64,000 nt of DNA from Patescibacteria group bacterium (GTDB taxonomy: Bacteria > Patescibacteriota > Patescibacteriia > UBA2591 > UBA6264): NCBI GenBank assembly GCA_021735685.1, contig JAIPGN010000002.1, forward strand, positions 3,183 to 67,182, given 5' to 3'. Below the pieces are notes generated by a model. The model had not been told where the DNA came from, ran no database searches, and was given only the letters and a program-made list of their open reading frames with translations. Below are positions 14,279 to 64,000 of the stretch, piece by piece. Both the position numbers and the translations under genes were made by a program. Position 1 is the first letter of the stretch. The number at the start of each line of letters is the position of its first letter.

Positions 14279-14303
14279 ATGTACGAGGTTCGACCTCGTA
14301 CAT
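14279..14303. repeat. 25-bp perfect palindrome ATGTACGAGG-TTCGA-CCTCGTACAT; the core is inverted relative to the four copies at 52.6-53.0 kb
   Basis: Sits immediately after the rpmE stop. The arms are identical to those copies and the central 'gttcgac' is the reverse complement of their 'gtcgaac'. Confidence 0.8.
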
Positions 14304-32236: not shown

Positions 32237-33710
32237 TCTTTTTAGTTAAAACAATAGGAACGGTCATTAAAATAATTTGCAAATCTAAAAGTAAAGACCA
32301 ATTCTCAATATAATAAATATCTAATTCTGCTTCTTTATTAAAGGATAGATCCGAACGACCAGAAATTTGAGCTAAACCAGTTAAGCCCGGCTTAATGGTT
32401 AATAATTGTTTGTGCTCTCTTTCATACTTTGATATCTCTTGCGGTTCATGAGGTCGCGGTCCCACTAAACTCATCTCTCCTTTGAAAATATTAAGAAGTT
32501 GAGGCAATTCATCTAAGCTAGTCTGACGAAGAATTTTTCCAAAACGAGTAATACGAGGATCGTTTTTCATTTTAAATAAAGGTCCCGACCTTTCGTTGCG
32601 TGACATTAAATCTTTCTTAAGATGAGCTGCATTGGGAACCATAGAACGAAATTTATATAACATAAAATGTTTATTTTTTTGACCCACTCTCTCTAATTTA
32701 ACCAAAGCCGATCCCGGAGAATCCAGCTTAATGATGATAGCTAAAATCAAAAAAAGAGGCCAAAGAAGAAGCAGTCCCAAGGCTGAAACTAATAAATCAA
32801 AAGCTCTTTTGGCGATTCTCCCCCAACCCTGAAGAGCAGTTTGGTTAAGGGTAATGACCGGAAAACCACTTAAAGTCTCTACCTCAATGTTACTTAATAG
32901 GGATCCAAAAACATCAGCCACATATCTGAAAATAATTTGGTTTTCTTGACAAAGGCCGACAACCGAAAGCATTTCCGATCTTTCAGCAAAGGGCTCAAAT
33001 TGAATAATTTGATTTATTTCTCGGAAACGATTTGACCAATTTTCCTTTAAGTCCGAAAAATTTAACGGATTACCTAAAACCCGATAGCCAAACCCTGGAT
33101 TATTCTTTAAAAGCTGAATCATTTCTCTAGCTTCTGAGCTTTGTCCTAAAATTAAAATCGGTTCTAAATTTTTTCCTTTTTTGTAAGCAATTAGCTCTGC
33201 TCCATGAATTAAAATTCTCCCTAAGCTAACAAAAAGGAAAGAAATTAACCAAGCTGCTAAAACAATAAAACGAGAAGAAAAATATTCTCCTCTGAAAAAA
33301 ATAAAAAGCACTACCGACATAATCCCTAAAGAGCAAGCAATAAAAACCTTAGGGAGTTCTCGAGAAAAACGTTTTTTGCTACGGAGATTATACAAGCCCG
33401 CTCCCGCAAAGACAGCCAACCAAAGCAGGGCAATAATCAAAATAGACCATAAATATTGTCGAAAAGGAATTTCATAAATCACCGGCCTTAATTGATCCAA
33501 AGCGCTAAAACGTAAAAAATAAACAAAAATACCTGAGCAGACCAACATTAAATAGTCAACCGGAACCAATAGACTAACAAAAACTAAATCTCCTTTCTTC
33601 ATATTATTTATTATAGCAAAAAAATAAAGCACTGTTAACAAAAGTAGCTCAGCCTTAAAGACTGAACTACTTTTGTTGATTAGTTCTTCATAAGCCGAAT
33701 TCTGTACCAC
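32226..33710 (-). CDS. Polyprenyl-phosphate glycosylphosphotransferase (WbaP/CpsE-type priming sugar transferase)
   Basis: C-terminal 'AFDLLVSALGLLLLWPLFL...KFRSM...GPLFKMKNDPRITRFGKILRQTSLDELPQL...SLVGPRP'. The first ~35 nt overlap the RNase P RNA 3' end; a start at M37 (33602) is possible. Confidence 0.75.
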   Translation of the reverse strand: MVQNSAYEELINKSSSVFKAELLLLTVLYFFAIINNMKKGDLVFVSLLVPVDYLMLVCSGIFVYFLRFSALDQLRPVIYEIPFRQYLWSILIIALLWLAVFAGAGLYNLRSKKRFSRELPKVFIACSLGIMSVVLFIFFRGEYFSSRFIVLAAWLISFLFVSLGRILIHGAELIAYKKGKNLEPILILGQSSEAREMIQLLKNNPGFGYRVLGNPLNFSDLKENWSNRFREINQIIQFEPFAERSEMLSVVGLCQENQIIFRYVADVFGSLLSNIEVETLSGFPVITLNQTALQGWGRIAKRAFDLLVSALGLLLLWPLFLILAIIIKLDSPGSALVKLERVGQKNKHFMLYKFRSMVPNAAHLKKDLMSRNERSGPLFKMKNDPRITRFGKILRQTSLDELPQLLNIFKGEMSLVGPRPHEPQEISKYEREHKQLLTIKPGLTGLAQISGRSDLSFNKEAELDIYYIENWSLLLDLQIILMTVPIVLTKKNAV

Positions 33711-34035
33711 TTGCTAAAAAAACAAGCAGGATGGCTATTTATCTAGGCCTAATGTTACCATTAGGCTCTAACGACCCACCAAAATTTGGTCTTGCACTCA
33801 AGTAAGGATTTAGCCGTTTCACCCCTACATTTCTGTAGGATTACCCCATCTTTCAAAGGGGCGCTCGACCTTTCGGTCTTGCGCGTCTCTGTTCGCACCT
33901 CTATCAATTTTGCCCAAAGGCAAAATTGACGACGGGCGTTACCCGCTACCCGGCTCCTTCCAAAGAAGGAAGTGTTCGGACTTTCCTCTCGGCAGCCCAT
34001 GGGGCTACCCAGCAGCCATCTCCGAACCAATCTTT
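33675..34035 (-). ncRNA. rnpB: RNase P RNA (bacterial type-A-like)
   Basis: Minus strand reads 'GAGGAAAGTCCGAAC' (P4 5' strand), 'GGGTAACGCC', 'GGGGTGAAACGG', 'GGCCTAGATAAAT', then 'ACAGAATTCGGCTTAT' (P4 3' strand) pairing with P4 5'. P1 is GATTGGTTC/GAACTAATC. The region is locally GC-rich and otherwise without a credible CDS. Confidence 0.75.
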
Positions 34036-51599: not shown

Positions 51600-52550
51600 A
51601 TGATTAGCATGCCTAGCGAAATCAAAAAATTAATTACTGATTTTTTGGAATATTTAGAAATTGAAAAAGGTTGCAGTCCTTTGACCATCCGTAATTATAG
51701 TTTTTATCTTCAAAGATTTGTTGAACATGCTCAGATTAATTCAGCTTCAGAGATTAATAAAGAAAAAGTACGTCAATTTCGTCTTTGGCTATCTCGCCAA
51801 AAAAATTATCGGCAGGAAAACCTTTCTTTGGCTACTCAAAACTACCATTTAATCGCTTTACGTTGCTTTTTAAAATATCTTGCCGTTAAAGACATTAAAA
51901 CCTTAGCTCCAGAAAAAATCGAACTAGCTAAAACCGAAGAAAGACAAATTTCCTTTCTGGAGGGTCGTGATTTGGAAAACCTTTTAGAAGCTCCTTTAAA
52001 AGTTAAGCAAAAAAAAATCATTAGTTGGCGCGATAAAGCAATTCTGGAGCTTCTCTTTTCTACAGGTCTTCGAGTTTCTGAACTAACCAATCTCAAAAAA
52101 GAAAACATCAATTTGCAAAAAAATGAATTTAGTGTGCGAGGAAAGGGTAAAAAATGGCGATTAGTTTTTCTTTCTCAGCAAGCTAAACATTGGCTTAAAA
52201 AATATCTTGACCAAAGAACTGATTTTGACCCCTCTCTTTTCGTTCGTCACGATCGGGCTCGCTCTAATGATAAAAAATCCCTAGGAATCACTCCTCGTTC
52301 CGTACAAAGATTGGTGCAAAAATATGCCAAAGTAGCTGGTTTAACCCGTAAAATAAGCGTTCACACCTTGCGTCACAGCTTTGCTACTGACCTTCTTTCC
52401 GGAGGCGCTAATTTACGAGCCGTCCAGGAATTATTGGGACACCGGAACATCACTACTACTCAAATTTATACTCACGTCACCAATCAACATTTACGAGAAA
52501 TCTATCAAAATTTTCACGACCAAAAAAGAAAAAACAAAGAAAAAGAATAA
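51600..52550 (+). CDS. xerD: Tyrosine site-specific recombinase, XerC/XerD-like
   Basis: N-terminal core-binding 'LITDFLEYLEIEKGCSPLTIRNY'; C-terminal 'HTLRHSFATDLL...LGHRNITTTQIYTHV' (R-H-R-Y catalytic residues). Confidence 0.85.
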   Translation: MISMPSEIKKLITDFLEYLEIEKGCSPLTIRNYSFYLQRFVEHAQINSASEINKEKVRQFRLWLSRQKNYRQENLSLATQNYHLIALRCFLKYLAVKDIKTLAPEKIELAKTEERQISFLEGRDLENLLEAPLKVKQKKIISWRDKAILELLFSTGLRVSELTNLKKENINLQKNEFSVRGKGKKWRLVFLSQQAKHWLKKYLDQRTDFDPSLFVRHDRARSNDKKSLGITPRSVQRLVQKYAKVAGLTRKISVHTLRHSFATDLLSGGANLRAVQELLGHRNITTTQIYTHVTNQHLREIYQNFHDQKRKNKEKE

Positions 52551-52592
52551 AAATCCTATGCTTTCACCATCCCCATCCCTGCATTTTTAAAA

Positions 52593-52669
52593 ATGTACGA
52601 GGTCGAACCTCGTACATAGCATGGTTAAGCTGTTTTAGAGGCAAATGTACGAGGTCGAACCTCGTACAT
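52593..52669. repeat. 77-bp unit A: palindrome-27 nt spacer-palindrome (ATGTACGAGGTCGAACCTCGTACAT x2)
   Basis: Perfect 25-bp palindromes at 52593-52617 and 52645-52669 separated by 'agcatggttaagctgttttagaggcaa'; 43 bp after the recombinase stop. Confidence 0.85.
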
Positions 52670-52706
52670 GCCCACCTAAATACTTACTAAATGCTCATAA
52701 ACTTAT

Positions 52707-52781
52707 GCCCCCATAGTTCAACGGATAGAACACCAGCCTTCTAAGCTGGATATAGAGGTTCGATTCCTCTTGGGGGTGCCA
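52707..52781 (+). tRNA. tRNA-Arg (anticodon TCT)
   Basis: Cloverleaf: D-stem GTTC/GAAC, anticodon stem CCAGC/GCTGG with loop CTTCTAA, T-arm AGAGG-TTCGATT-CCTCT, CCA encoded. Confidence 0.8.
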
Positions 52782-52800
52782 TTTCCCACCAAAGTCTCAT

Positions 52801-52874
52801 GGCGGCTATAGTTTAATGGTAGAACAGCGGGTTGTGGTCCCGCTAGCGAGAGTTCGATTCTCTCTAGTCGCCCC
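52801..52874 (+). tRNA. tRNA-His (anticodon GTG) with encoded G-1
   Basis: G-1 pairs with C73; anticodon stem GCGGG/CCCGC with loop TTGTGGT; T-arm GAGAG-TTCGATT-CTCTC. Confidence 0.8.
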
Positions 52875-52880
52875 TCAAAA

Positions 52881-52912
52881 ACATCTCTTTTTCAAGAGGT
52901 GTTTTTGTTTTT
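52881..52912 (+). terminator. Rho-independent terminator after tRNA-His
   Basis: Hairpin ACATCTCTT-tttc-AAGAGGTGT followed by TTTTTGTTTTT. Confidence 0.55.
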
Positions 52913-52930
52913 CGGAAAATGCTCAAAAAA

Positions 52931-53007
52931 ATGTACGAGGTCGAACCTCGTACATAGCATGGTTAAGCTGTTTTAGAGGCAAATGTACGAGGTCGAACCT
53001 CGTACAT
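52931..53007. repeat. 77-bp unit B, identical to unit A (palindromes at 52931-52955 and 52983-53007)
   Basis: Same 25-bp palindromes and the same 27-nt spacer as unit A; together they bracket the tRNA-Arg/tRNA-His pair. Confidence 0.85.
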
Positions 53008-53062
53008 GGCACATGGCATATGGATTGCGCTTGATCCATATTTTTCTGCAATAAAAAATTAT

Positions 53063-54520
53063 TTAAAAAACAGGAGAGCCCTCTTGATAAGATTGAATCT
53101 CTTGCGTGCTAATTTTAACCACATCTTCAAAAGAAAAACCAATTCTTTCTAAAGCTTGTGGAGAAACCACCCATCTTTTTATTTTTTGATCTAAAAAATA
53201 AACCTTATCTTGGCCAGGTGCTTGAATTAAGTAATTCCGAGGCAAGGACTGAATAATGTCACTACTAACATCAATCACATTTTTTAAGCCTCCATAGAGC
53301 TCAGCCATGGTTTGATTAAAAACTTCACGAACGGTTCCATTGTTCTCTACTATATAAATTTTGCCGTCTAACTCATTTCTAATAAAACGAGCTAAAGGCA
53401 ATTCTTGAATAGTGGACCCCATTTCTACTATTTCTTCCCAAACTCCACCTGCTGTTTCAAAAACCTGAGGACTATTAAGCCACAAACGAAAACCATCTAA
53501 ATTAAGATAAACTTTTTCTTGGTCCTTGGCTTTAACAAACCGCACATCATCTCCATTTCCTCCTTCTTCTTCATCAAAAAAACGAATCGCTGGATCAGGT
53601 TCATAAACCGAAACTGAGGTTAAACAAAATAGAGGAGGTTGACAATTGATTCCCAGAGCTTCTCCTTGCCAAGAATCCTCAAAACGATCAGAATTTTCTT
53701 CCTCTAATTTCACCCAAAGCAAAAAATCATTACCCGAACGATTAGTCAAGTAACCGTATTTATAATCCTCGGCCACTCCTTGAACTTGATCTCGAAAATT
53801 TCGTTTGTAATTCGTGCGGTGATTTAAAGTTGCTGAATCTAAAATTTTCTCCAAAGCTTCCCATTGCTCATCTTTATCTAAACTAGACTCGCTAACAATT
53901 GGATATTGAGCAAATTCTTGATGATATTTATCCAAAGCTCTCTGCACCCTTTTTAAATCATAAACCCGACTTCGATCTCTGTTTCGCGGAGCTCTTTCCG
54001 AAAAATCTTTTAATTCTAATTTAAGATTTAATTCATTTAACTCTGGCGTTAAATAAGAATTAGAGGTGGCTAGAAAAACTTTAAGACGAACCTTTTTGGC
54101 CACCAAGGGCGGCTCAAAAGGAACTCCCCAGTTAAGAGGATATTCTCTTAAATCATCCCCAAAGCTAGCGTAAAGTAGAATTCTAGTTCCTGAGGGCTGG
54201 CTATAAGCGCCAGTGACAGTCAGTGAAAAAATATGAGGATTAAATCTGATGTCTTCGGTCCATAGAACTCCTGAAGAATTGAAATTTCCGACCTCGCCAT
54301 CTAAAGTGATTTTTCCCCTTTCCCAATGAACCGTGCTGTAATCCCAATCAATAATAGAAGAATACCTAAAATCATATTCTTCTTCATCTTTTATAATTGG
54401 CGCCGGGCCCAAAGAAAAAACTGACCTTACCGGAACCAGCAAAGCCAAAAAAATTAAAAACAATTTCCAGTGCAATCTTTTCATATCAAGTATTAAAGCA
54501 AAAAATAGCCATTTTGTCAA
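53063..54520 (-). CDS. Secreted hypothetical protein
   Basis: Signal peptide 'LFLIFLALLVPVRSVFS'; 485 aa, Trp/Tyr-rich, no known motif. Confidence 0.5.
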   Translation of the reverse strand: MTKWLFFALILDMKRLHWKLFLIFLALLVPVRSVFSLGPAPIIKDEEEYDFRYSSIIDWDYSTVHWERGKITLDGEVGNFNSSGVLWTEDIRFNPHIFSLTVTGAYSQPSGTRILLYASFGDDLREYPLNWGVPFEPPLVAKKVRLKVFLATSNSYLTPELNELNLKLELKDFSERAPRNRDRSRVYDLKRVQRALDKYHQEFAQYPIVSESSLDKDEQWEALEKILDSATLNHRTNYKRNFRDQVQGVAEDYKYGYLTNRSGNDFLLWVKLEEENSDRFEDSWQGEALGINCQPPLFCLTSVSVYEPDPAIRFFDEEEGGNGDDVRFVKAKDQEKVYLNLDGFRLWLNSPQVFETAGGVWEEIVEMGSTIQELPLARFIRNELDGKIYIVENNGTVREVFNQTMAELYGGLKNVIDVSSDIIQSLPRNYLIQAPGQDKVYFLDQKIKRWVVSPQALERIGFSFEDVVKISTQEIQSYQEGSPVF

Positions 54521-54572
54521 TCCTTTAGAGCTGAACCCCTATGACAAGTTTCCCAATTTGAGTCTGTGTAAT

Positions 54573-55397
54573 TTATTTTACAGAGATTCTTTTCTTTAAA
54601 AGGATTAAAACAATTAAGATAATAATTAAAACTGAAATGCCAATAAAAAAATAAGGTTTTATGGATTGAAAATCAACAACACCCTGATCTTCTTCATTAT
54701 CACCCAAAATCAAAAAATTCATCTCTTCTTCGTTGATTAATTCCGGAGAAGAAAAGATGAAATTTAAATCCTCATCGCGACGAGGTAAAATTCTTAATTC
54801 TTCATTACTTAAACTTAAAACTCCGGTCACTTTTAAAAAATCCCCTTCTTGGTATTTTCTTTTATCGATTTCAGCGTGATCTTTAAAATAAATAACAATT
54901 TCTCTTTCCCCATCTTTTAAAAAAAGACGGGGACTCTTCTTTTCAATGACTTGTCCTTGAACTTGAATTAAACTCCCCACTAAAGAAAGCTCAACATCTT
55001 GAGTGCTTATCAATAAAGGAGAAATTAACTCATCTTTTCCTAAAACTTCAATATCAGCCTTTTCTTTGATTTTAATCCTTTTCTCTCCCTGGGCCTGAGA
55101 AACAACTCCTCTTACTTTAACTTTATCCCCTTCTTCTAATTCTGGGAAATCTTTGTAATAAGAATAAATTTGACAACCGTTAATATAAAAAAATTGGAGC
55201 CCTAAGGCTCCCGGCAAGGCCACTACTGTTCCTTGAGTTTCCACTCGAGAATCTATGACCATTTCTTTAACTTCTTGGGGCTCTATATATTGATAATCAA
55301 CCGCAAAAATTTCTCCTTGCCCAAGAAAAGGCAAAAAAAACCCTAACCAGAAAATAAAAATAATCAATATTTTGCTTTTATTGTCCATCATAAACAA
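54573..55397 (-). CDS. Hypothetical protein with N-terminal signal anchor and C-terminal TM + KKR tail
   Basis: N-terminal 'ILIIFIFWLGFFLPFLG'; C-terminal 'YFFIGISVLIIILIVLILLKKRISVK'. Confidence 0.45.
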   Translation of the reverse strand: MFMMDNKSKILIIFIFWLGFFLPFLGQGEIFAVDYQYIEPQEVKEMVIDSRVETQGTVVALPGALGLQFFYINGCQIYSYYKDFPELEEGDKVKVRGVVSQAQGEKRIKIKEKADIEVLGKDELISPLLISTQDVELSLVGSLIQVQGQVIEKKSPRLFLKDGEREIVIYFKDHAEIDKRKYQEGDFLKVTGVLSLSNEELRILPRRDEDLNFIFSSPELINEEEMNFLILGDNEEDQGVVDFQSIKPYFFIGISVLIIILIVLILLKKRISVK

Positions 55398-55434
55398 TAA
55401 ATATTAAAATTGAAATTTTATTCTCTTTGAAGAA

Positions 55435-58400
55435 TTATTCTTCTTGAATCTCAGCTGGTGGGAAACAAATCGTATTCCCCCAAGGACAACAAGAACTAAG
55501 TCCGCCGGGGCAGTCTTCCCATTCACAGCTAGAAGAAGGAGACTCTCCTGCGTCTGTAACAGCAGTCACTTGATAATAATAGTCTACATAAGGCAAAATT
55601 CTCTGATCAGTATAACAACAAACACTAGAATCATCCTGCCCTTTTCCACAATTATTATCCTCTACTCCTAAAACATGACAGACTTCAGTCAGAGAACAAT
55701 TGTCTTGGCCACAATCACCCGCTTCATAATCTACTCTAACGCTTTCCTGGCTACGAATAGCGTCATAAAAAGACAAATTATCAATCAAGCCATGGAAATA
55801 TCCCGGAGATCCTCCGTTGCTAGCGCCGATTAATAAATCATTCGTGCTTAAAGGCGCAATTGAATCAAGAATATAAGAAGAGGTTTTATCTAAAAGCCCA
55901 TCAATATAAAAAGTAACTGTTCCTTGTCCAGATTGATGATTACGGATAGCAACCAAATGGTGCCAATCCGTGTCATCAATTAAAGTATCACTTTTAATTT
56001 CTATTTTTTCAGTAACCCCATCTCCAAAAATAAGAGCTAATAAGTCATCAGAGCCAATTTCCCAACGCAAGAAACGATTAATATCATCTTCTGAGTCTTT
56101 GTTGTCAGAAAAAATAACATCTCGAGTGCCAGCAGAACTCCTCTTCACCCAAGCCTGAAGGGTAATGGTCTCGCTATCAAATTCTTCACTGTTGGGAATA
56201 ATAATATAATTACTTGTGCCGTTAAACTCTCCGGCATTATTAAATAAGCCATTTGTATTTGGCGTAGCTCCAAAAGACGTCCCGTGATGAGTTGAATCAG
56301 AACCAGAAGAATCTTTAACCTCTTCTGACGTCCCATCCCAATCTTCCTCATTCATTTTCCAATGAGCAGTTAAATTAGTATAATCCATAGCTTCTCCTAA
56401 ATGACCAATAACGGCAAAGTCTTCCGCCGTGCTTAAAGAATTATAAATATTGTAGCCACTCGCTGTTTCTGATAAATCCCAATAAACTTCTATTTCGCCA
56501 CAAGTATTATCATCAATTTCCACATTTTCTGGAGAGCAAAGGGTTGTTCTTTGCCAAACCGGACCCTCCGAATTATAAGTAGAACCAGTTTCATTATGAG
56601 CTTCAATTTTGTAACAATAACCAGTATCTGAGCTAAGTCCCACATCCTGAACATTAAACTCTTCTCCACTTAAAACATTATATTCTACGTAAGAACAAGT
56701 AGCGCAATCACTTGCCTCAACATTATCGCAACGATGATAAGTATAGCTTTCCGCCCAGTCCGATGACTCCCATTGAATTAAAAGCTGTTCACATCCTTCC
56801 GTGTTAGTTACGGACACACTATTAAAATCAGCTGGTTCTGGAGGATCACCATAATCATGATCATTATCGCCCCAGCCCACACAATAAGGATCTTGCTTCT
56901 GGTAATCACGAAGAACTTGGGTTGGTGTGCGAGCAACTTCGTAGATAGAAACATTATCAATCAAGCCTCGGAAATAAGAATCACCTCTTAAAAAACGTCC
57001 CCCAATTGATAAACTTAAGTTATTGGACAAGTCACTAATCTCTCCAAAACTATCAACCGAACCAGTGACCTCTCCATCTAAATACCTAGTAATGGTTCCT
57101 TGAGCTCGATCAAAAACCACAGCTACGTGATTCCAAGTATTGAGAGTTAAATAATTAGAATCAGGAGTATCAGCTTTACTATTTGCCTCATCTCTTAAAT
57201 ACCAAGAAATTCCCCCGTTATAATCCAATCCAATCTCATAACCAGGACCGCTATTTCTTTTGACGATAGGCAAAGATCCACTAGTCTTAAAAAAGTCCAT
57301 GGGCTTAACCCAAAACTGAATTGTAAAACTTTCCGCATCATTAAAATCCAACTTTTCGCTATCAGCAATTTCAATATAATCATTTAAACCGTCAAATTGA
57401 CCGGCATTATTAAAAAGACCATCGGAGTTAGGACTAGCCCCACTAGCTATTCCTTGATTACCCTCGCCACTGCTATCTACCACTGGAATAGAGCTGCCGG
57501 TATTAGTCGACCAACTCGGTTCATCCATCATCCAATTACCCACTAATCCCTCTGAATCCATAGTGGTATCGGCATGACGATTAGCCATATATCCTCCCAT
57601 TGTATAAAAAGGGCTATAATTATTTAAATAAATGCCCCAAATTTTTCCTTGTTTAGTTGCTCCTCGTAAGTTAAGCCAACCGGCGTTTTCCAAATTAATA
57701 ACCTTGGCCCAACCAGAAACCTCTATTTTGGCATCTGCCCAAACATCACGTGCACTTCTTCCAAAAGTCAAACCGATATTATTACAAGTCCAAAGAGAAA
57801 CATTATCAATTAAACCAGTAAAATAACTATCCATTTGACCCGAGCTTCCCTTTTTCGCTCCCAAATAAAAATCATTATTTAAATCTTCCAAAAAAGATGG
57901 AATCTCGCCTAAAATTTCTGAACTAACCGACAGACCATCAATAAAGATTTGCAAAAAAGCATCTTTATCACTAGTGGCGGTTATATATTTACCGGTTAAA
58001 TGATGCCATTTAGTGACATCAGTAATCAAAGCATTACGGCAAAAAGCACCCTTACCCTCACAGTCCTCATCCGAGGAACACTGCTCTCCTTGGTTTACTC
58101 CCCCGAAACAAAGGCCTCTCCTCTGTTTAACAGTAGCTTCTTCCCCACCATTACCTACTGAAAAATTAAGCTTATTTTCTTGATCAAACCAAAGACGATA
58201 ACTTTTTTCACCCGTAGATTCATCCCATTTGCTTAAAATTGTCTGCTCTCTGTTAATCTCTCCTCTTTTCACCCAAGCTTCAATAGTTAAATTATCACTT
58301 ATACTTAAACTTGGACTATCCAACGCATAAAGATAACTATTTTCTCCATTAAATTGCAAAGCATCGTCAAATTTTCCCTTCGCCAGGCTTGGCGAGACTC

Positions 58401-59244
58401 CTATAGAAAAATCATTTCCAAAAGAAGAATTATCAGCTAAAGCTGCAGAAATTTCCCCACCTCCAGAATTCATTTTCCAATGGGCTTTCAAAGTTTCATT
58501 GGTAACACTATAGCAAAGAGATCCCGAACGATTAATATCTAAAAAATCTTCACCGCCATCCCCCGAGCAACCAAAGATACATAGTCCATCAGGACAATCT
58601 GAGCTTTCCTTGCTACAAGATTGCCCATCATTAGCGCCACCATCACAATACCAACTAGGTTCGCCCACACAAGCCCAAGAAAAAGGCCAACCGCCAGGAG
58701 GATTAACCTGTTCTGGTTCGGGGCAACCCGAACAACCTGTACAATTAACATAATCCTCGCAACTACTGCAATCAGCACACTTACAACTACGGCCAAAACA
58801 AACCCAGCCAACCTTATCCGACCAAGCATAACCCCTTAAACTCTCTCTTTGAGTGTCATAAACTAATCCGTAAAGCGGACTTTCCATCCCACTCGGGCAA
58901 GTACTTCCGCCCGGGCAACAATTCTCAAAAGTGCCGTCCTTGGAACATACTCCTCCGCCCTCACAATCTCCGTCCTGAGTGCAAGGCTCTCCGTCATAAA
59001 TACCTCCCACGCAAACTGCAGTAAAATCATTATGACAATTCGCAGAAATCCAACCCATATTCTCTCCCCACGTCCAACCGCGTACATTAAAATCTATATC
59101 TGCTCCCACTCTCTCTAAACCAAATCTATTATTAGGGGAATTAAAAAAATATTTGGGAATAATAAATATTCCCAGAATAACAAATATTCCTAAAACTAAA
59201 AAAATTCTCAGAGATTTTTTTTCCAAAAAACTCAACTTCATCAT
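55435..59244 (-). CDS. Giant (1269 aa) surface protein with Cys-rich modules and three LamG/concanavalin-A-like lectin domains
   Basis: N-terminal TM; three repeats of the 'FNNAG(Q/E)F(D/N)G...Y..I..S..L.F....T...WVK' LamG pattern ('DDALQFNGENSYLY...IEAWVKR'; 'FNNAGQFDGLNDYIEIADS...IQFWVKP'; 'FNNAGEFNGTSNYIIIPNS...LQAWVKR'); multiple CxxC clusters. Confidence 0.7.
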   Translation of the reverse strand: MMKLSFLEKKSLRIFLVLGIFVILGIFIIPKYFFNSPNNRFGLERVGADIDFNVRGWTWGENMGWISANCHNDFTAVCVGGIYDGEPCTQDGDCEGGGVCSKDGTFENCCPGGSTCPSGMESPLYGLVYDTQRESLRGYAWSDKVGWVCFGRSCKCADCSSCEDYVNCTGCSGCPEPEQVNPPGGWPFSWACVGEPSWYCDGGANDGQSCSKESSDCPDGLCIFGCSGDGGEDFLDINRSGSLCYSVTNETLKAHWKMNSGGGEISAALADNSSFGNDFSIGVSPSLAKGKFDDALQFNGENSYLYALDSPSLSISDNLTIEAWVKRGEINREQTILSKWDESTGEKSYRLWFDQENKLNFSVGNGGEEATVKQRRGLCFGGVNQGEQCSSDEDCEGKGAFCRNALITDVTKWHHLTGKYITATSDKDAFLQIFIDGLSVSSEILGEIPSFLEDLNNDFYLGAKKGSSGQMDSYFTGLIDNVSLWTCNNIGLTFGRSARDVWADAKIEVSGWAKVINLENAGWLNLRGATKQGKIWGIYLNNYSPFYTMGGYMANRHADTTMDSEGLVGNWMMDEPSWSTNTGSSIPVVDSSGEGNQGIASGASPNSDGLFNNAGQFDGLNDYIEIADSEKLDFNDAESFTIQFWVKPMDFFKTSGSLPIVKRNSGPGYEIGLDYNGGISWYLRDEANSKADTPDSNYLTLNTWNHVAVVFDRAQGTITRYLDGEVTGSVDSFGEISDLSNNLSLSIGGRFLRGDSYFRGLIDNVSIYEVARTPTQVLRDYQKQDPYCVGWGDNDHDYGDPPEPADFNSVSVTNTEGCEQLLIQWESSDWAESYTYHRCDNVEASDCATCSYVEYNVLSGEEFNVQDVGLSSDTGYCYKIEAHNETGSTYNSEGPVWQRTTLCSPENVEIDDNTCGEIEVYWDLSETASGYNIYNSLSTAEDFAVIGHLGEAMDYTNLTAHWKMNEEDWDGTSEEVKDSSGSDSTHHGTSFGATPNTNGLFNNAGEFNGTSNYIIIPNSEEFDSETITLQAWVKRSSAGTRDVIFSDNKDSEDDINRFLRWEIGSDDLLALIFGDGVTEKIEIKSDTLIDDTDWHHLVAIRNHQSGQGTVTFYIDGLLDKTSSYILDSIAPLSTNDLLIGASNGGSPGYFHGLIDNLSFYDAIRSQESVRVDYEAGDCGQDNCSLTEVCHVLGVEDNNCGKGQDDSSVCCYTDQRILPYVDYYYQVTAVTDAGESPSSSCEWEDCPGGLSSCCPWGNTICFPPAEIQEE

Positions 59245-59371
59245 TAATTTTCTTTCAAAATTTTAAATACTAAAAAAATTATGCAAGAAAGGGTCGAATT
59301 TTTAAGCAAAACTCGACCCTCAATTCTTAGGTAACCTAAAAATACTTTTTTCTAAAAGTAATTTGGCTCAA

Positions 59372-60010
59372 TTATTCAACATGCATTACTCCAGTCTCGC
59401 CTCTTCCTCGATGACCAGGAACGTCACAGTAGAAAGTGTAATCACCGGCAGCTGGAGCCTTAAAAGTGATAGCTCTGGTCTCGTTTCCGGCAACTCCAAT
59501 AGCGACCGCCTGCAAGCTCGCATCGTCAAACTTAAAGACATGAGTACGATCGGTTGAAGTCAAAGAAAGAGTGACCACATCACTAGCATTAACCGTAAAT
59601 TCACTAGGAGTGAAACCACTGGCGCTAATACTTAACTTTACTGCTGTTTCTGGAACTTCCTCTTCGGTTAAGGCACGAGATTGTCGGGGAGCGTCTGGAG
59701 AACCAGGTAAGGCAGTATTATCCGCAACCTCTCCTCCAGAAGTTAGAACTTCACCTTCTTCAGAAACTGGACTAGCATCTGGAACTACAGATTCAGAAAC
59801 TTCCTCTGCCTCGCCTTCTTCAGGGATAAATTCACCCTCTTCTTCGGGAAGCATTTCCCCTTCTTCTTCGGGAAGCATTTCCCCTTCTTCTTCGGGAAGC
59901 ATTTCCCCTTCTGGCTCAACTACTTCAGGCTTAGAACTGAGTAAAATAATACCCAAAATAACTAAAATCGCGATAATAATAATAGTCCAAACTGTATTGT
60001 TGTTTTTCAT
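59372..60010 (-). CDS. Membrane-anchored cupredoxin (plastocyanin/amicyanin-like type-1 copper protein) with acidic repeat linker
   Basis: C-terminal 'THVFKF...GDYTFYCDVPGHRGRGETGVMHVE' gives the His...Cys-x2-Pro?-Gly-His...Met ligand set. N-terminal TM and 'EGEMLPEE' x3. Confidence 0.6.
   Translation of the reverse strand: MKNNNTVWTIIIIAILVILGIILLSSKPEVVEPEGEMLPEEEGEMLPEEEGEMLPEEEGEFIPEEGEAEEVSESVVPDASPVSEEGEVLTSGGEVADNTALPGSPDAPRQSRALTEEEVPETAVKLSISASGFTPSEFTVNASDVVTLSLTSTDRTHVFKFDDASLQAVAIGVAGNETRAITFKAPAAGDYTFYCDVPGHRGRGETGVMHVE
59836..59910. repeat. 24-bp tandem repeat x3 inside the cupredoxin gene
   Basis: 'ccttcttcttcgggaagcatttcc' repeated; encodes EGEMLPEE. Confidence 0.7.
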
Positions 60011-60066
60011 AATTATTCTCGACTTAAAGATTGATTAAAAAATTATAGACCTTTAATTTATTAAAC

Positions 60067-61650
60067 TTATAAAGATAAAATGTTTTCAACCTCCACAACA
60101 ATTCCATTAATTAAGGTTTGTGTATCAGTATAAAGACTATCAAGAGATTGCTGGTAGGTTCTCAAAAGAGCTAATTTTTCGTTTTCAGACACTTCCGTCA
60201 AACCGTAAACGTTATAAATATCAATTAAAATAGCATCTATTTGCGCAACATTAGTATCTAAAGAATTCTCTGGATCTGCTTCGTAAGTATCCAACAAAGC
60301 CAAAGATGTATCTAATTCTGAAGTGTCGCCAGTGTCTAAATATCTTTTCGTGCAGTCATTATAACAAAAATCTCCGGTTGTTCCATCAACCTCATTATTA
60401 TCGTCACACTCTTCCTCCCCCTCAACAACTCCATCTCCACAAACAGCAGTCTCTGGATTCTCTTCTCGGCTGGCTGTACACACCGGACTATCCCCGCCAG
60501 CTGCCGAACAAGTCCAATCTAAACTTTGCCCTTGTTCAGGGAAATCGGTTTTAGAAGGTGTTCCAACTGAACATTGTTCATAGGGAGGATATCCCGTAGC
60601 ATCATAAGGAAAAACTCTTTCGTGAGCATCTCCGCAAGCACCAACTGGTGGATTTTCTCGACTAGCTGAACACTGGGAACTATCTCCTCCGCTAGTCTGA
60701 CAAAGCCAATTTTCTGTTCCTCCCTGAACAGGAAAATTAGTATTAGTGGAACTTCCCGTAGCGCACTGAAGATAAGGACTATAACCAGTGGCATCATAAG
60801 AGAAGGTCATGCCATTAGCATTACCACAAGTACCTGGTTCCTCAGGTGCCGCTCCTCCCACATATTCTTCTAATAATCCATTAGCTGCGCACTTGCCTCC
60901 CTGATAACAATCTTTCAGTCCTTCGGGAGCACAAAATTCAACTATACACTGTTCTTCATTACCGTCTGCCGCTGCCATGGCTAATCCTAATTCAGGATCG
61001 CCTACACATAAACCATTTTCTTCAGAAAAAAAACAAGGCTGGCCTTGAAGATTTAGCTGAGACCCACAAAGCTCAGGGTCGGTTTGATCATATTTACGGC
61101 AAGTCCAACCCGTGGTCGGCACTTCAGCAGCTAAAGCTGGAGAAATAAAACTAGATAAATTGGGCCAATCAAAGACTAATTTTCTTTTATTTTGAAAAAA
61201 AGTATACTCTGGCCCAGTAGTATAATTAGCCACAAAAGTTCTAGTATCATTTATTAGTTGATAAGAGTTTTGGATTTGAGAAGCTAAGCCGTTAGCTTGG
61301 ATATAAGATAAGGCCGAATCCCCTAAAATCATAAAAGTTAAATCTAAAGAGCTCCCGGTAGTATTCATTAAATCTAAAATTTCTTGCTCAGTACTACTAG
61401 CCTGAATTGAACTTTCTAAAGATGTAAGCTCACTACCAAAACTACTAAGCAATGAATTTATTGCCTCAAAATTAATATATTCCATATCTTCTATTCTTCC
61501 ATAAAAAGAACTAGCCAGAGAAGGAGTATATTTATTTTGTATTCTATCCACATAAAAACTTTTAGTGCTAGCTAAATCCGCATGAACTGCCGAGCTCCAA
61601 AAGAAAACTAAAAACAAGCTTAAAATTAATAAATACTTAAAATTTTTCAT
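60067..61650 (-). CDS. Secreted cysteine-rich protein with an internal ~45-aa duplicated module and a 'CGDGVVEGEEECDD' Cys-rich repeat
   Basis: Signal peptide 'LLILSLFLVFFWSSAVHA'; modules 'TGYSPYLQCATGS...WLCQTSGGDSSQCSASRE' and 'TGYPPYEQCSVGT...WTCSAAGGDSPVCTASRE'. Confidence 0.6.
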   Translation of the reverse strand: MKNFKYLLILSLFLVFFWSSAVHADLASTKSFYVDRIQNKYTPSLASSFYGRIEDMEYINFEAINSLLSSFGSELTSLESSIQASSTEQEILDLMNTTGSSLDLTFMILGDSALSYIQANGLASQIQNSYQLINDTRTFVANYTTGPEYTFFQNKRKLVFDWPNLSSFISPALAAEVPTTGWTCRKYDQTDPELCGSQLNLQGQPCFFSEENGLCVGDPELGLAMAAADGNEEQCIVEFCAPEGLKDCYQGGKCAANGLLEEYVGGAAPEEPGTCGNANGMTFSYDATGYSPYLQCATGSSTNTNFPVQGGTENWLCQTSGGDSSQCSASRENPPVGACGDAHERVFPYDATGYPPYEQCSVGTPSKTDFPEQGQSLDWTCSAAGGDSPVCTASREENPETAVCGDGVVEGEEECDDNNEVDGTTGDFCYNDCTKRYLDTGDTSELDTSLALLDTYEADPENSLDTNVAQIDAILIDIYNVYGLTEVSENEKLALLRTYQQSLDSLYTDTQTLINGIVVEVENILSL

Positions 61651-61772
61651 AAAAAAATATTAAAAAATATAAATTATACAAAGATACAATAACCAAGATA
61701 CAAGATACAAGACACAAACAAATCGCAAATTCCCCGCCTGCCAGCGAGCAGGCAATACTCAATGTCCAAGCT

Positions 61773-62114
61773 CTATTTCGTTTTATCAATAATAGAAGAA
61801 AGAATATTTTTTAATTCTGTGGCTTCTTGATAAAGAGCTTTAACTTCTTTTTTAAAACTTGGGTTAGCTACCTCAATAAGCTCAAGCCAATGTAATGTTT
61901 CTTTAGCTTCTTTCCTTGATATTTTTAAACGATGAGCAAAATCTTTCTTTCCTAACGCATCATTTGCCTCTCTATAATTAGCTCCTACTGAACCCGCTGA
62001 CCCAACTATTTGTCCAATTAACCTACTGTTCATTGAATTATGTGTCAATTTTCTGCACAAACGAATCACATTTTTAGCAAATTCTGTAGTTCTTTCCTCT
62101 AAGTCAAACCTCAT
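61773..62114 (-). CDS. Four-helix-bundle protein (23S rRNA IVS protein / DGR Avd family)
   Basis: 113 aa; 'TEFAKNVIRLCRKL...LIGQIVGSAGSVGANYREANDALGKKDFAHRLKISRKEAKETLHWLEL' matches the PF05635/TIGR02436 pattern. Confidence 0.75.
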   Translation of the reverse strand: MRFDLEERTTEFAKNVIRLCRKLTHNSMNSRLIGQIVGSAGSVGANYREANDALGKKDFAHRLKISRKEAKETLHWLELIEVANPSFKKEVKALYQEATELKNILSSIIDKTK

Positions 62115-62176
62115 ACAATATTTGGTTATTGGTTATTGAATATTGTTTGGTTATTGTTTCTTGTGTCTTGTTTCTT

Positions 62177-62407
62177 TTATTCCGTAGGAATTTCTAAATT
62201 TCCCTTCAATTGATTTACCAAATCTTCTAAACTCTTCTTGGTCACCTCTCCTTCCGTTTTTTTGTCTTTATCAATCTTTAAAATCTCAGTACCAATTTCC
62301 TCTTTTTCTTCTTCCAGTAACTCCTCTTTAGAAATCATTATAAATAAAGCAATGATAACTAGCAAGAGAACAATCAACCAAAGATATTTTTTTTTATTTT
62401 TTGGCAT
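62177..62407 (-). CDS. Small single-TM protein with acidic tail
   Basis: 76 aa; 'YLWLIVLLLVIIALFIMI' TM then Glu/Lys-rich. Confidence 0.35.
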   Translation of the reverse strand: MPKNKKKYLWLIVLLLVIIALFIMISKEELLEEEKEEIGTEILKIDKDKKTEGEVTKKSLEDLVNQLKGNLEIPTE

Positions 62408-62438
62408 ATATTTTTTATATTATTAAAAATAATTTCAA

Positions 62439-63800
62439 CTAATAAGCGCCAGAAGTGGAATGGCTCTCTATTGTATACCAAGCCGCGCCAGAAGTGCTGT
62501 TCATGCAAACTTGAAAATAAGCGACTCCGCTTGATTCATAATAACGCATTGCCCCTAATGTTCCAGAAGTACAACTTTCTGTGCCGATTCCACCAGCAAA
62601 AGTAAGACCAGAAACATTCATATCTCCATCAATATTCATGTTTCCACCAACATAAGCAGAGCCACCTACATTTAAATTGTCTCCGATATATACAGGGTTT
62701 TCTCCAGCTGCGCTAGCTACATGCAAGGCATAACTACCCCCTGTTCCCTTTATCCCGACATTTCCATCAGTGCGGACATAAATTCCATAATTAGTACTAG
62801 TTTTGCCGTCACCGCCACTCTTGATAGCAATAGCATCTCCTGATGTTATATTTAAAGTACTGGAACTAGGCATGGTCTCTGGCGGCCAACTAGGAGTAGT
62901 GCAATCATCATCCCAAATATAAGAGTCGTCGGCTATTCTGATACCCTTTTCTCCAGGAGAACCACACTCTGTGATTCCAATAAAACCACCTACCAAAAGA
63001 TCATTGGTAATCCAGGCGTTTCCCTGCTGGACATGTAAGGCTGCCCCTGGCTCTGTCGTGCCAATTCCGATTCTTGCCTGATCATCTATTAAAGAAAAAC
63101 GAATTGTTCCTCGAACGCTAGAACAAAGCTCTGCTACACAATATTTAAAAATTAAAGGAGTGTTGGTTTGAGAACCCTGCGACAACAAAGACCAAGATTC
63201 ATTTGCACCTGCGTTTCCAATACTTATACTAACATCATCATTAGCGTCTTCGTCAATCCAAAATTTTGGATCTTGATCAGTCTGGAATTGGGAATCAGCA
63301 AAGCCAAAAACCAAAGGCTTGTTAACGGCATCTCCCATAGAACTAATTTTCCAAAACTCTCCATAAGTACCAGTTTCATCTCCTAATCTAATTTCTGCCC
63401 CTCGACTACCTGTAGCAGAGGTTGATTTTACTTGCAAGGTCTGAACTCCGCTTCCCCTAATATCTAAAGGATGCCCCGGATCATTCGTGCCAATGCCAAC
63501 ATTACCGGAAAGGCCCAATGTGGCGTCTTTATTTAAATAGACATCGCTGGCATTTTGACGCCAAATGCCAACATAGGAAAAAGAATGAACTCCATTCACC
63601 GCATCTTTCGCATAACCCCAGGTCGCGGCACTATCATCTGCTCCAGGTTCTGCTAAATGTTTAATTTCATAAGGTCCTCCCTCTTGCCCTAAATTCAAAT
63701 TATTACTCACTTTTAAATCAGCCGCCCAAGCAATAGCCCAAACTCCTAAAATTAAAGTCAGAACAATTCCTCCTAATAAAATTACTTTTTCCTTTTTCAT
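62439..63800 (-). CDS. Secreted beta-rich Gly/Ser/Thr/Asn-rich protein with fibre-like '(V/I)GIGT..PG..L.V' repeats
   Basis: Signal peptide 'LLGGIVLTLILGVWAIAWA'; 'NVGIGTNDPGHPLDIRG', 'RIGIGTTEPGAALHVQQG', 'NVGIKGTGGSYALHVAS'. Confidence 0.55.
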   Translation of the reverse strand: MKKEKVILLGGIVLTLILGVWAIAWAADLKVSNNLNLGQEGGPYEIKHLAEPGADDSAATWGYAKDAVNGVHSFSYVGIWRQNASDVYLNKDATLGLSGNVGIGTNDPGHPLDIRGSGVQTLQVKSTSATGSRGAEIRLGDETGTYGEFWKISSMGDAVNKPLVFGFADSQFQTDQDPKFWIDEDANDDVSISIGNAGANESWSLLSQGSQTNTPLIFKYCVAELCSSVRGTIRFSLIDDQARIGIGTTEPGAALHVQQGNAWITNDLLVGGFIGITECGSPGEKGIRIADDSYIWDDDCTTPSWPPETMPSSSTLNITSGDAIAIKSGGDGKTSTNYGIYVRTDGNVGIKGTGGSYALHVASAAGENPVYIGDNLNVGGSAYVGGNMNIDGDMNVSGLTFAGGIGTESCTSGTLGAMRYYESSGVAYFQVCMNSTSGAAWYTIESHSTSGAY

Positions 63801-63927
63801 AAAAAAATATTAAAAAATAATTATTAAAGAAACAAAAAACAAGATACAAGAAACAAACAAATCCTAAACTTCAAACTCCAAAAACATCTAAAATAATTAT
63901 AGCGCTTAAAAATATAAGATGCAACCC

Positions 63928-64000
63928 TTATTTTGTCTTATTAATAATAGAAGAAAGAATATTTTTAATTTCTGTTGCCTCCTGAAAAAGAATCTTTACC
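63928..64000 (-). CDS. Second four-helix-bundle gene (paralog of 61773-62114), C-terminal 24 codons only
   Basis: Reads '...FQEATEIKNILSSIINKTK*' versus copy 1 '...YQEATELKNILSSIIDKTK*'; continues past the window end. Confidence 0.6.
   Translation of the reverse strand, partial: VKILFQEATEIKNILSSIINKTK

Follow-up and report, generated by a model that had tools for sequence, protein, structure and literature searches.

A probably native string of cell-surface protein genes beside a Xer recombinase in a Patescibacteria genome

Introduction

Concanavalin-type lectins are listed among the cell-surface features of the Patescibacteria, or Candidate Phyla Radiation (CPR), and a role in attachment has been speculated (PMC12911398), generally with host cells as the proposed target. 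Here we describe a block of genes for exported proteins, one of them a large protein with domains of this type, from a 64,000-nt stretch of a Patescibacteria group bacterium genome (GenBank assembly GCA_021735685.1, contig JAIPGN010000002.1, positions 3,183 to 67,182). The whole 64,000-nt stretch is referred to below as the window. The block occupies positions 53063-63800 on the minus strand. The source is a tiny bacterium, probably with a symbiotic lifestyle.

Other proteins of the block resemble systems described from unrelated organisms. ExeM has a signal peptide, an LTD domain, two essential OB folds, an EEP nuclease domain and a C-terminal anchor with a basic tail (PMC6085458). DdbD, a DUF5689 protein, is a predicted surface DNA binder and the partner of a TonB-dependent transporter in a Bacteroides DNA-utilisation locus (bioRxiv 10.1101/2025.03.18.642099), and Riemerella requires the DUF5689 protein RA0C_RS04920 for natural transformation (PMC8459023). 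A LamG-type domain is present in TafC, a subunit of the haloarchaeal Tat fimbria (PMC11821415). EccB1 contains repeat domains that earlier work compared to PlyCB, a protein that binds the wall (PMC4769845). Intervening sequences (IVSs) in 23S rRNA that carry S23p genes are excised by RNase III (PMC4990558).

Results and Discussion

Gene content and genomic position of the block

A total of eight ORFs, all on one strand and separated by spacers of 31–127 nt, were identified in the block (Table 1). The original prediction had listed six genes and overlooked two small ones, a 113-aa four-helix-bundle gene and a 76-aa anchored ORF. A single N-terminal hydrophobic segment is present in each of the six large proteins and in the 76-aa product, in agreement with the earlier view that each large protein has a signal peptide or an anchor. 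This pattern occurs in 7 of the 8 block ORFs compared with 5 of the 44 genes elsewhere in the window (Fisher p=4.3e-5), so the clustering of export signals is not a chance effect. The h-region and AxA-like sites are conserved in ortholog alignments, which backs the export calls. These signals, together with the lectin, fibre, Cys-rich and anchor features, support the proposal of a cell-surface or secreted locus in a reduced-genome bacterium.

Gene order was compared with that in related loci (numbered L below). L009, a 658-kb contig of a close relative, keeps the gene order in and beside the block. Its genes run fibre, 75-aa ORF, Cys-rich protein, cupredoxin, LamG giant, OB protein and p473, then the tRNAs and Xer, then S15, NYN and polynucleotide phosphorylase (PNPase), followed by epimerase, GT2, DUF2304, S26 and HisRS. 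The same block order beside Xer, tRNAs, S15, NYN and PNPase also occurs in the more distant loci L004/L005, L002/L003, L014 and L015, and L013 has the OB–p473 part only of the syntenic order. Five of the database entries (L014, L015, L017, L018 and L019) are recorded as 'uncultured Gammaproteobacteria bacterium'; they contain a Patescibacteria-type locus with a PNPase that is 60–75% identical to that of the window, and are probably mislabelled.

Conservation of position is not matched by conservation of sequence. Compared to L009, the housekeeping genes show 90–97% identity, and the values for p473, OB274, LamG1269 and the cupredoxin are 86, 81, 84 and 85%, respectively. The distal genes are lower still, with 64–67% for cys527, in which Cys modules are deleted, and 47–57% for fib453, which has a HINT/intein-type insert. 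Compared to L002 and L004, housekeeping genes share 67–83% identity (a local match in S15 reaches 90%; DUF2304 and GT2 reach only 36–37%), p473 56–59%, OB274 43–49%, LamG1269 46–57% and the cupredoxin 68–70%. In these two loci cys527 shares 39%, is replaced by a GIGT fibre-like protein or has no match, and fib453 shares 41%. By these identities the core proteins evolve faster than the housekeeping ones, and the distal genes are mosaic.

Collectively, the block is probably a native, vertically inherited string of envelope or cell-surface genes of the Patescibacteria and not an acquired island; we hold this with moderate confidence. Its conserved core comprises the cupredoxin, LamG1269, OB274 and p473. 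The suggestion that the block is variable or accessory applies to the distal genes only, since the core sits at the same site in L009, L002, L004, L014 and L015. Conserved synteny was largely found across relatives; conservation of a housekeeping degree was not, except in the invariant cupredoxin domain.

Table 1. Features of the block and of its boundaries
Feature	Position in window	Strand	Description
XerC/D-type recombinase	51600-52550	+	NCBIfam XerC/XerD, Pfam Phage_integrase
tRNA-Arg(tct)	52707-52781	+	Left boundary of block
tRNA-His(gtg)	52802-52874	+	Left boundary of block
25-nt palindromic hairpin followed by T6	52931..52955	-	From terminator scan; terminator-like, at end of block
p473	53063..54484	-	Secreted, 473 aa; ORF extensible to TTG at 54520
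OB274	54573..55397	-	Exported; two OB folds, C-terminal transmembrane segment and KKR; ATG at 55391 gives 272 aa
LamG1269	55435..59244	-	N-terminally anchored, 1269 aa, 47 Cys
Cupredoxin	59372..60010	-	Membrane-anchored type-1 cupredoxin, 212 aa, with acidic EGEMLPEE repeat linker
cys527	60067..61650	-	Secreted modular Cys-rich protein
Four-helix-bundle cassette A	61698..62180	-	ORF 61773-62114, 113 aa, cytoplasmic; S23p / PF05635
76-aa ORF	62177..62407	-	N-terminal anchor and charged tail
fib453	62439..63800	-	Secreted; resembles tail fibre
Four-helix-bundle cassette B, 3' part	63823..64000	-	ORF runs off window; full copy at L001:49-545

LamG1269 and cupredoxin

LamG1269 matches Laminin_G_3 (PF13385; 239 bits, 2.6e-71) as well as PF07953 and PF02210, which bears out the description of a 1269-aa Cys-rich protein with three LamG/ConA-like domains. 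These domains lie at approximately residues 245–490, 575–785 and 975–1165. Four PF13385 stretches were detected and correspond to three domains, the first of which is split by a Cys-rich insert. The protein also contains two fn3-like spacers, Cys-rich modules and 'GWxW..GWI' motifs. Orthologs with 84, 57 and 46% overall identity retain 46, 43 and 39 of the 47 Cys residues, respectively, a pattern that fits structural disulfides of an extracellular protein.

As a large exported Laminin_G_3 protein from a CPR genome, LamG1269 is comparable to the so far uncharacterised ConA-like lectin surface proteins of this group. It differs from them in that it forms a conserved triad together with p473 and a double-OB anchor protein; no description of such a triad was found in the literature searched. 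LamG1269 also matches the TafC fimbrial protein model (NF052521) at 5.7e-19, with 68.5 bits against an equivalog cutoff of 410, and was not assigned to this family; the LamG-type domain is common to both, whereas LamG1269 has no Tat signal and the organism and the architecture differ. A type IV pilin assignment was likewise rejected for LamG1269 and for p473, as direct reading revealed no class III (G/FTLIE) signal in either.

The cupredoxin call was confirmed by matches above cutoff to Cupredoxin_1 (PF13473; 36 bits, cutoff 27; 7.5e-9) and PF00127 (24.8 bits, cutoff 21.2). His157, Cys195, His200 and Met209 are the same in all four orthologous sequences, which represent three related lineages, and are by their position in the motif the predicted copper ligands. 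Residues 154-211 are 100% invariant (L002, L003, L004 and L009), where PNPase is only 75% identical. Judged from this alignment, the domain is under unusually strong constraint for a gene located among fast-evolving surface genes. The linker is built from a 24-nt tandem repeat (3.4 copies), and the number of EGE(M/I)LP repeats varies between relatives.

p473 and its C-terminal repeat module

The first gene product after the tRNAs had been described as a secreted protein of 485 aa. Export was upheld, and the length was revised to 473 aa with M13 as the likely start, as all p473 orthologs align from the ATG at M13 and the 485-aa version would need a TTG start. No Pfam match was found for p473. 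In the AlphaFold2 (AF2) model (pLDDT 73.5), residues 30-160 form a confident beta-sandwich, residues 165-290 a pilin-like domain in which a long helix packs against a sheet, and residues 315-473 three beta-beta-beta-alpha-alpha repeats of about 50 aa each. The resemblance to pilins is confined to the helix-and-sheet head domain. The modelled N-terminal domain is predicted to be a jelly roll similar to carbohydrate-binding modules and LamG domains.

The p473 family comprises 22 homologs, all from Patescibacteria or unlabelled metagenomes, and relatives were found in 9 of 185,579 species-representative genomes. An exhaustive profile search returned 2208 matches, 739 of them at E<=1e-10. Among the best 150 of the 2208, full-length matches were found in only about 8 representative clusters. 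Most of the others match residues ~312-472 only, usually at the extreme C-terminus of proteins ranging in size from 190 to 3083 aa. Sampled proteins with this C-terminal module have N-termini with Cohesin, CARDB, Kre9_KNH-Ig, fn3, LamG, He_PIG, Big or CarboxypepD_reg domains. Single p473 repeats are also matched by small phage proteins. The distribution of domain architectures is as expected of an envelope anchor, and the triple repeat (residues 312-473; window 53063-53550, minus strand), for which no Pfam model is available, is therefore a candidate envelope-anchoring module. From the architectures we infer that the repeats bind the wall, and they may represent a general envelope-anchoring domain of CPR proteins. 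PDB sequence searches with p473 (single sequence and profile), the OB profile, fib453 and LamG1269 yielded nothing useful.

OB274 and a possible role in nucleic-acid capture

The second gene of the block had been noted as encoding a protein with a C-terminal transmembrane segment and a KKR tail. OB274 indeed has one N-terminal segment and a C-terminal transmembrane segment followed by KKR. It matches PF01336, a model of nucleic-acid-binding OB folds, with 34 bits (cutoff 27). The family comprises 23 homologs, all from Patescibacteria or unlabelled metagenomes, of which 21 match PF01336 and 18 match DUF5689 (PF18942) at E<=1e-3, with a best E of 1.4e-10. Taken alone, OB274 of the window scores 16.3 bits to DUF5689 against a gathering cutoff of 28.6.

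A conserved 'DF...(K)PYF' motif directly precedes the C-terminal transmembrane segment in the family alignment (window 54573-54700). The combination of this motif, a transmembrane segment and a basic tail recalls the tripartite sorting signals found in the substrates of exosortases and archaeosortases (PEP-CTERM, PGF-CTERM). No sorting enzyme was identified in the window. OB274 was rejected as a sortase substrate, since its C-terminus, ..DFQSIKPYFFIGISVLIIILIVLILLKKRISVK, has (K)PYF in place of LPXTG.

Like ExeM, NucH and YhcR, OB274 combines a signal peptide with two OB folds of the nucleic-acid type and ends in a hydrophobic anchor plus a basic tail. It differs from them in lacking an EEP or SNase nuclease and an LTD domain in the same polypeptide. 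It was not accepted as an ExeM/NucH endonuclease, with 15.7 bits to that model against a cutoff of 300 and no nuclease domain in Pfam. OB274 thus looks like the non-catalytic OB-plus-anchor part of an ExeM-like layout. In distant relatives of the locus, LTD domains sit on the neighbouring giant protein and not on the OB protein. With the DUF5689 proteins of Bacteroidota, the OB family shares the domain match (in 18 of its 23 members), the surface exposure and a position beside the gene of a large envelope protein. The Bacteroidota proteins are lipoproteins that work with TonB-dependent outer-membrane transporters, whereas OB274 appears to be tail-anchored and no TonB-dependent transporter gene accompanies it.

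An alternative reading of the locus is a role in the capture of extracellular nucleic acids. The double-OB protein would be a surface receptor for DNA or RNA with the giant protein and p473 as its scaffold, and such a module, a monoderm counterpart of a nuclease-less ExeM or of DdbD, would feed nucleotide-auxotrophic Patescibacteria or their competence machinery. The PF01336 and DUF5689 matches in most of the family, the link of DdbD and RA0C_RS04920 to exogenous DNA, the ExeM-type ends of OB274 minus the nuclease, the LTD domains on the giant neighbours in L006 and L011 and the JGI name 'YhcR' of the OB homologue P0051 all point in this direction. The scores of OB274 itself below the DUF5689 and ExeM_NucH cutoffs argue against it, as does the fact that oligosaccharides are also bound by OB folds. 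Moreover, no nuclease, ComEA, ComEC or pilus gene was found in the block or the window, and the giant protein of this clade has LamG and not LTD. On balance, this role is rather unlikely and merits attention as a candidate.

The giant–OB–p473 triad

The OB gene keeps its large and p473-type neighbours where the surroundings have changed. L013 has the order HEAT protein, 2006-aa protein, OB protein, 66-aa ORF and p474, and L011 has HEAT protein, 2337-aa protein (LTD/Ig/DUF2341), OB protein, AAA_14 protein and p474. In L012 a DUF2341 fragment, the OB protein and p459 adjoin gyrB and nusG, and in L006/L007 a 1274-aa protein, p476, a HEAT protein, a 2109-aa protein (LTD/fn3/DUF2341) and the OB protein adjoin metK. 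A metagenome scan for OB proteins with at least 44% identity recovered a p473 homolog within 8 kb in 15/15 loci, directly downstream in 14/15, and an ORF of at least 1262 aa abuts the OB gene in all 11 loci with enough upstream DNA. Because this adjacency survives changes of the flanking genes, p473 and the OB protein may act together with the giant lectin protein at the cell surface. In such an arrangement, the LamG domains and the p473 jelly roll would recognise glycans, either of a partner cell or of the cell's own envelope, p473 would be tethered to the wall by its triple repeat, and OB274 would bind a polyanionic ligand at the membrane, most likely nucleic acid.

We therefore put forward, as a tentative and on present evidence unlikely proposal, that the triad is an undescribed envelope apparatus of this clade whose role at the surface is to capture extracellular nucleic acid or, alternatively, a polyanionic glycan. 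If true, the triad would be a monoderm counterpart of DdbCD of Bacteroidota and of ExeM-type proteins in DNA handling, and a feeding route for nucleotide-auxotrophic CPR bacteria.

In L006 (4880-5812), genes for an extracytoplasmic function (ECF) sigma factor and a DUF5667 protein lie directly upstream of the pair formed by the large secreted protein and p473, a hint that ECF-sigma/anti-sigma control may operate at that locus. The window also encodes an exported DUF5667 protein of 625 aa, at 25972-27849 (+), outside the block.

Alternative explanations

Several observations weigh against the locus as read here. OB relatives with at most 43% identity mostly have neither a giant ORF nor p473 nearby. 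The p473 loci L017 and L022 have no detectable OB gene in the available flank, and the L020 contig ends 3.7 kb downstream. As the triad is lost in such distant loci, it is clade-specific and not universal. The signal peptides were called by hydrophobicity only. Possible internal terminators, including a hairpin after the cupredoxin gene that was read by eye, may split the block into several transcription units. The wall-binding role of the triple repeat is drawn from the distribution of architectures and from Foldseek matches to the EccB1 repeat domains, which are weak (E ~1e-3, TM ~0.1).

The loss of the triad and the possible terminators would also be expected if the proteins had no joint function, that is, if unrelated envelope genes stayed adjacent through gene-order inertia in a small genome with low recombination. 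The heterogeneity of the domains, with a redox cupredoxin among adhesin-like proteins, fits this explanation. It accounts poorly for the giant–OB–p473 adjacency in L011, L012 and L006, where the flanks are entirely different, and for the position of p473 directly downstream of OB in the closer metagenomic loci. We regard the absence of any joint function as rather improbable.

The left boundary of the block might suggest an accessory, strain-variable island inserted beside the tRNA genes by the adjacent tyrosine recombinase. A recombinase and two tRNAs do lie there, perfect direct repeats are present, the G+C content is slightly higher at 57-61 kb, and the distal genes are mosaic, with mobile four-helix-bundle cassettes between them. 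The recombinase, however, is of the XerC/D type (243 bits each to the XerC and XerD models), is syntenic in relatives and is more conserved than PNPase, with 83% identity where PNPase has 75% and 97% where PNPase has 93%. The tRNA-Arg(tct) and tRNA-His(gtg) genes stand between Xer and the block also in L002, L004 and L009, and at least five related lineages have the tRNA pair and the core block at this position.

The repeats at this boundary have a different arrangement from that expected of an island. A 25-nt palindrome, ATGTACGAGGTCGAACCTCGTACAT, occurs five times in the window (14279-14303, 52593-52617, 52645-52669, 52931-52955 and 52983-53007; 0 expected by chance), each time beside tRNA genes, and looks like a REP/MITE-like element (repetitive extragenic palindrome or miniature inverted-repeat transposable element). 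Two perfect 82-nt direct repeats, with two palindromes in each, bracket tRNA-Arg and tRNA-His only (52589-53008), and none of the repeat pairs encloses the block. The copy at 52955-52931, followed by T6 on the minus strand, may terminate p473 transcription. A sigma-70 promoter scan gave 30 sites against 30.1 in shuffled sequence, that is, no excess, and Rfam returned no RNA element in the block.

The composition of the block was said to differ from that of the housekeeping region. This holds for the G+C content at second codon positions (GC2), which alone is raised in block genes encoding Gly/Ser/Thr/Cys/Ala-rich proteins; at third codon positions (GC3) the block equals the background, with 0.271 vs 0.268 elsewhere (Mann-Whitney p=0.66). 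The higher G+C content of some block genes thus reflects amino-acid content. The orientation of the block is not distinctive as had been supposed, given that genes at 30734-51396, to its left, also use the minus strand. Internal duplications were found as predicted, namely three LamG domains, two OB folds, the 24-nt linker repeat and the two Cys modules of cys527. PHROG and PADLOC scans found no phage, plasmid or defence genes; the only PADLOC hit, a 15.7-bit KwaA match on the 76-aa ORF, was not accepted as a defence system. Based on the Xer type, the tRNA position, GC3, the repeat placement and the conserved order, the island model is rejected for the core. It was already largely refuted by these data and is very improbable as a whole. 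In these genomes, odd-looking genes after a recombinase-tRNA junction do not by themselves justify calling an island.

In L002 (11579-12924), p473 is separated from the tRNA pair by three small ORFs, one of them a Phage_holin_4_2 gene. Palindromic repeats are all that the window has at this place, which is a small variable spot at the block boundary.

Distal genes

The distal genes, encoding a modular Cys-rich protein, a small anchored protein and a tail-fibre-like protein, would form the exposed and rapidly changing part of the locus. cys527 is helical at its ends and contains two Cys modules, each about 60 aa long, as well as a single Myxococcus-type CGDG..EECDD repeat. The latter had been recognised by eye and is supported by TIGR02232 (21.9 bits, cutoff 20.8; one copy, residues 403-434), whereas Pfam DUF4215 stays under its cutoff. 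The number of Cys modules differs in L009 and L004, and the corresponding slot in L002 encodes a different, fibre-like protein. The 76-aa ORF has 75-aa orthologs in L004 and L009, kept between the fibre gene and the next gene.

No Pfam match was found for fib453. Repeated GN(V/L)GIGT..P..L.V motifs, a weak match to the tail-fibre family phrog_9942 (2.6e-4), distant homologs with Peptidase_S74 or Collar domains, and partial matches to viral contigs with 25–37% identity suggest a fibre-like protein. The earlier description as beta-rich and fibre-like is supported by these sequence hints only; the AF2 model of 62439-63800 reached a pLDDT of 49.8 and is too poor for a fold search. The orthologs P0033-P0036 and L009:847-3132, from close relatives, have approximately 760–790 aa and contain PT-HINT, intein-splicing or Hom_end_hint domains. 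Therefore, the fibre gene hosts an intein-like/HINT insert in some lineages and not in the window.

Phage tail fibres and LamG-like jelly-roll tail proteins have tail and baseplate modules similar to the GIGT module of fib453 and to the p473 jelly roll. The block proteins differ from these phage proteins by their Sec signals, their conserved chromosomal context and the lack of virion genes. That the locus is the remnant of a prophage or tailocin, with its fibre, LamG and jelly-roll proteins left over from tail or receptor-binding proteins, would be consistent with the fib453 matches just given, with the phrog_3545 match on the LamG region (4e-29), with the similarity of the p473 jelly roll to phage baseplate and nozzle domains and with the holin-like gene near p473 in L002, but it is the most improbable of the explanations considered, since the proteins all carry a Sec-type signal or a membrane anchor, which virion proteins do not have, Pfam and PHROG scans detected no genes for a capsid, portal, terminase, sheath or tube, the search of viral contigs yielded no relative of p473, and the order beside housekeeping genes is stable across species.

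Four-helix-bundle cassettes

The distal region appears to have been invaded by two selfish four-helix-bundle cassettes. Cassettes A and B are approximately 480 nt each and contain one PF05635/S23p ORF between inverted repeats of CAAGAYA units. The cassette A ORF matches PF05635 (9.3e-18) and TIGR02436 (2e-24), its inverted repeats (I19 and I17) were found in the repeat search, and its protein is 83% identical to that of cassette B (tblastn). In both cassettes the ends pair into one long stem in the minimum free energy and centroid folds, with z-scores of -2.3 and -2.8. The segments 61643-61719/63793-63869 and 61767-61836/63922-63991 share 71–83% identity. What had been taken for promoter duplications (61643-61836 vs 63793-63991) are the 3' ends of the two four-helix-bundle genes together with their right flanks, at the right-hand ends of the cassettes.

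No cassettes are present at the locus in L002 and L004. L009 has at the same spot a different, frameshifted four-helix-bundle copy with other inverted repeats. The cassettes look like selfish insertions that are not part of the surface function. In their size, their PF05635 ORF and their terminal inverted repeats that pair into one long stem, they resemble the S23p IVSs in 23S rRNA of Coxiella and Leptospira. They differ from these by lying in spacers between protein-coding genes and not in 23S rRNA; Rfam detected no rRNA in the window, and no report of non-rRNA S23p cassettes of this kind was found in the literature searched. A diversity-generating retroelement (DGR), with the four-helix bundle as Avd, was rejected, as the window contains no reverse transcriptase (the only RVT_3 match is RNase H) and no long repeats resembling template and variable repeats.

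Other genes in the window

The remaining genes of the window are housekeeping genes, including DnaK/GrpE/HrcA, topoisomerase I, Pol III alpha, aminoacyl-tRNA synthetases, GatB, RecJ, MurG and FtsW. A class A bacterial RNase P RNA (118 bits) is located at 33675-34031 (-), between a sugar transferase gene and an RNase H gene.

Conclusion

Hardly any surface protein of the Patescibacteria has been characterised that would show how these bacteria attach to partner cells and acquire nucleotides. The locus described here is an ordinary surface-protein neighbourhood of uncharacterised families. It provides candidates that are conserved in the clade and therefore probably important, namely a giant lectin protein and a possible surface nucleic-acid binder. 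The association of the OB/DUF5689 protein with nucleic acid is its one testable functional lead. The p473-type C-terminal anchor-like module, reused in hundreds of proteins and still outside Pfam, is possibly a general new one.

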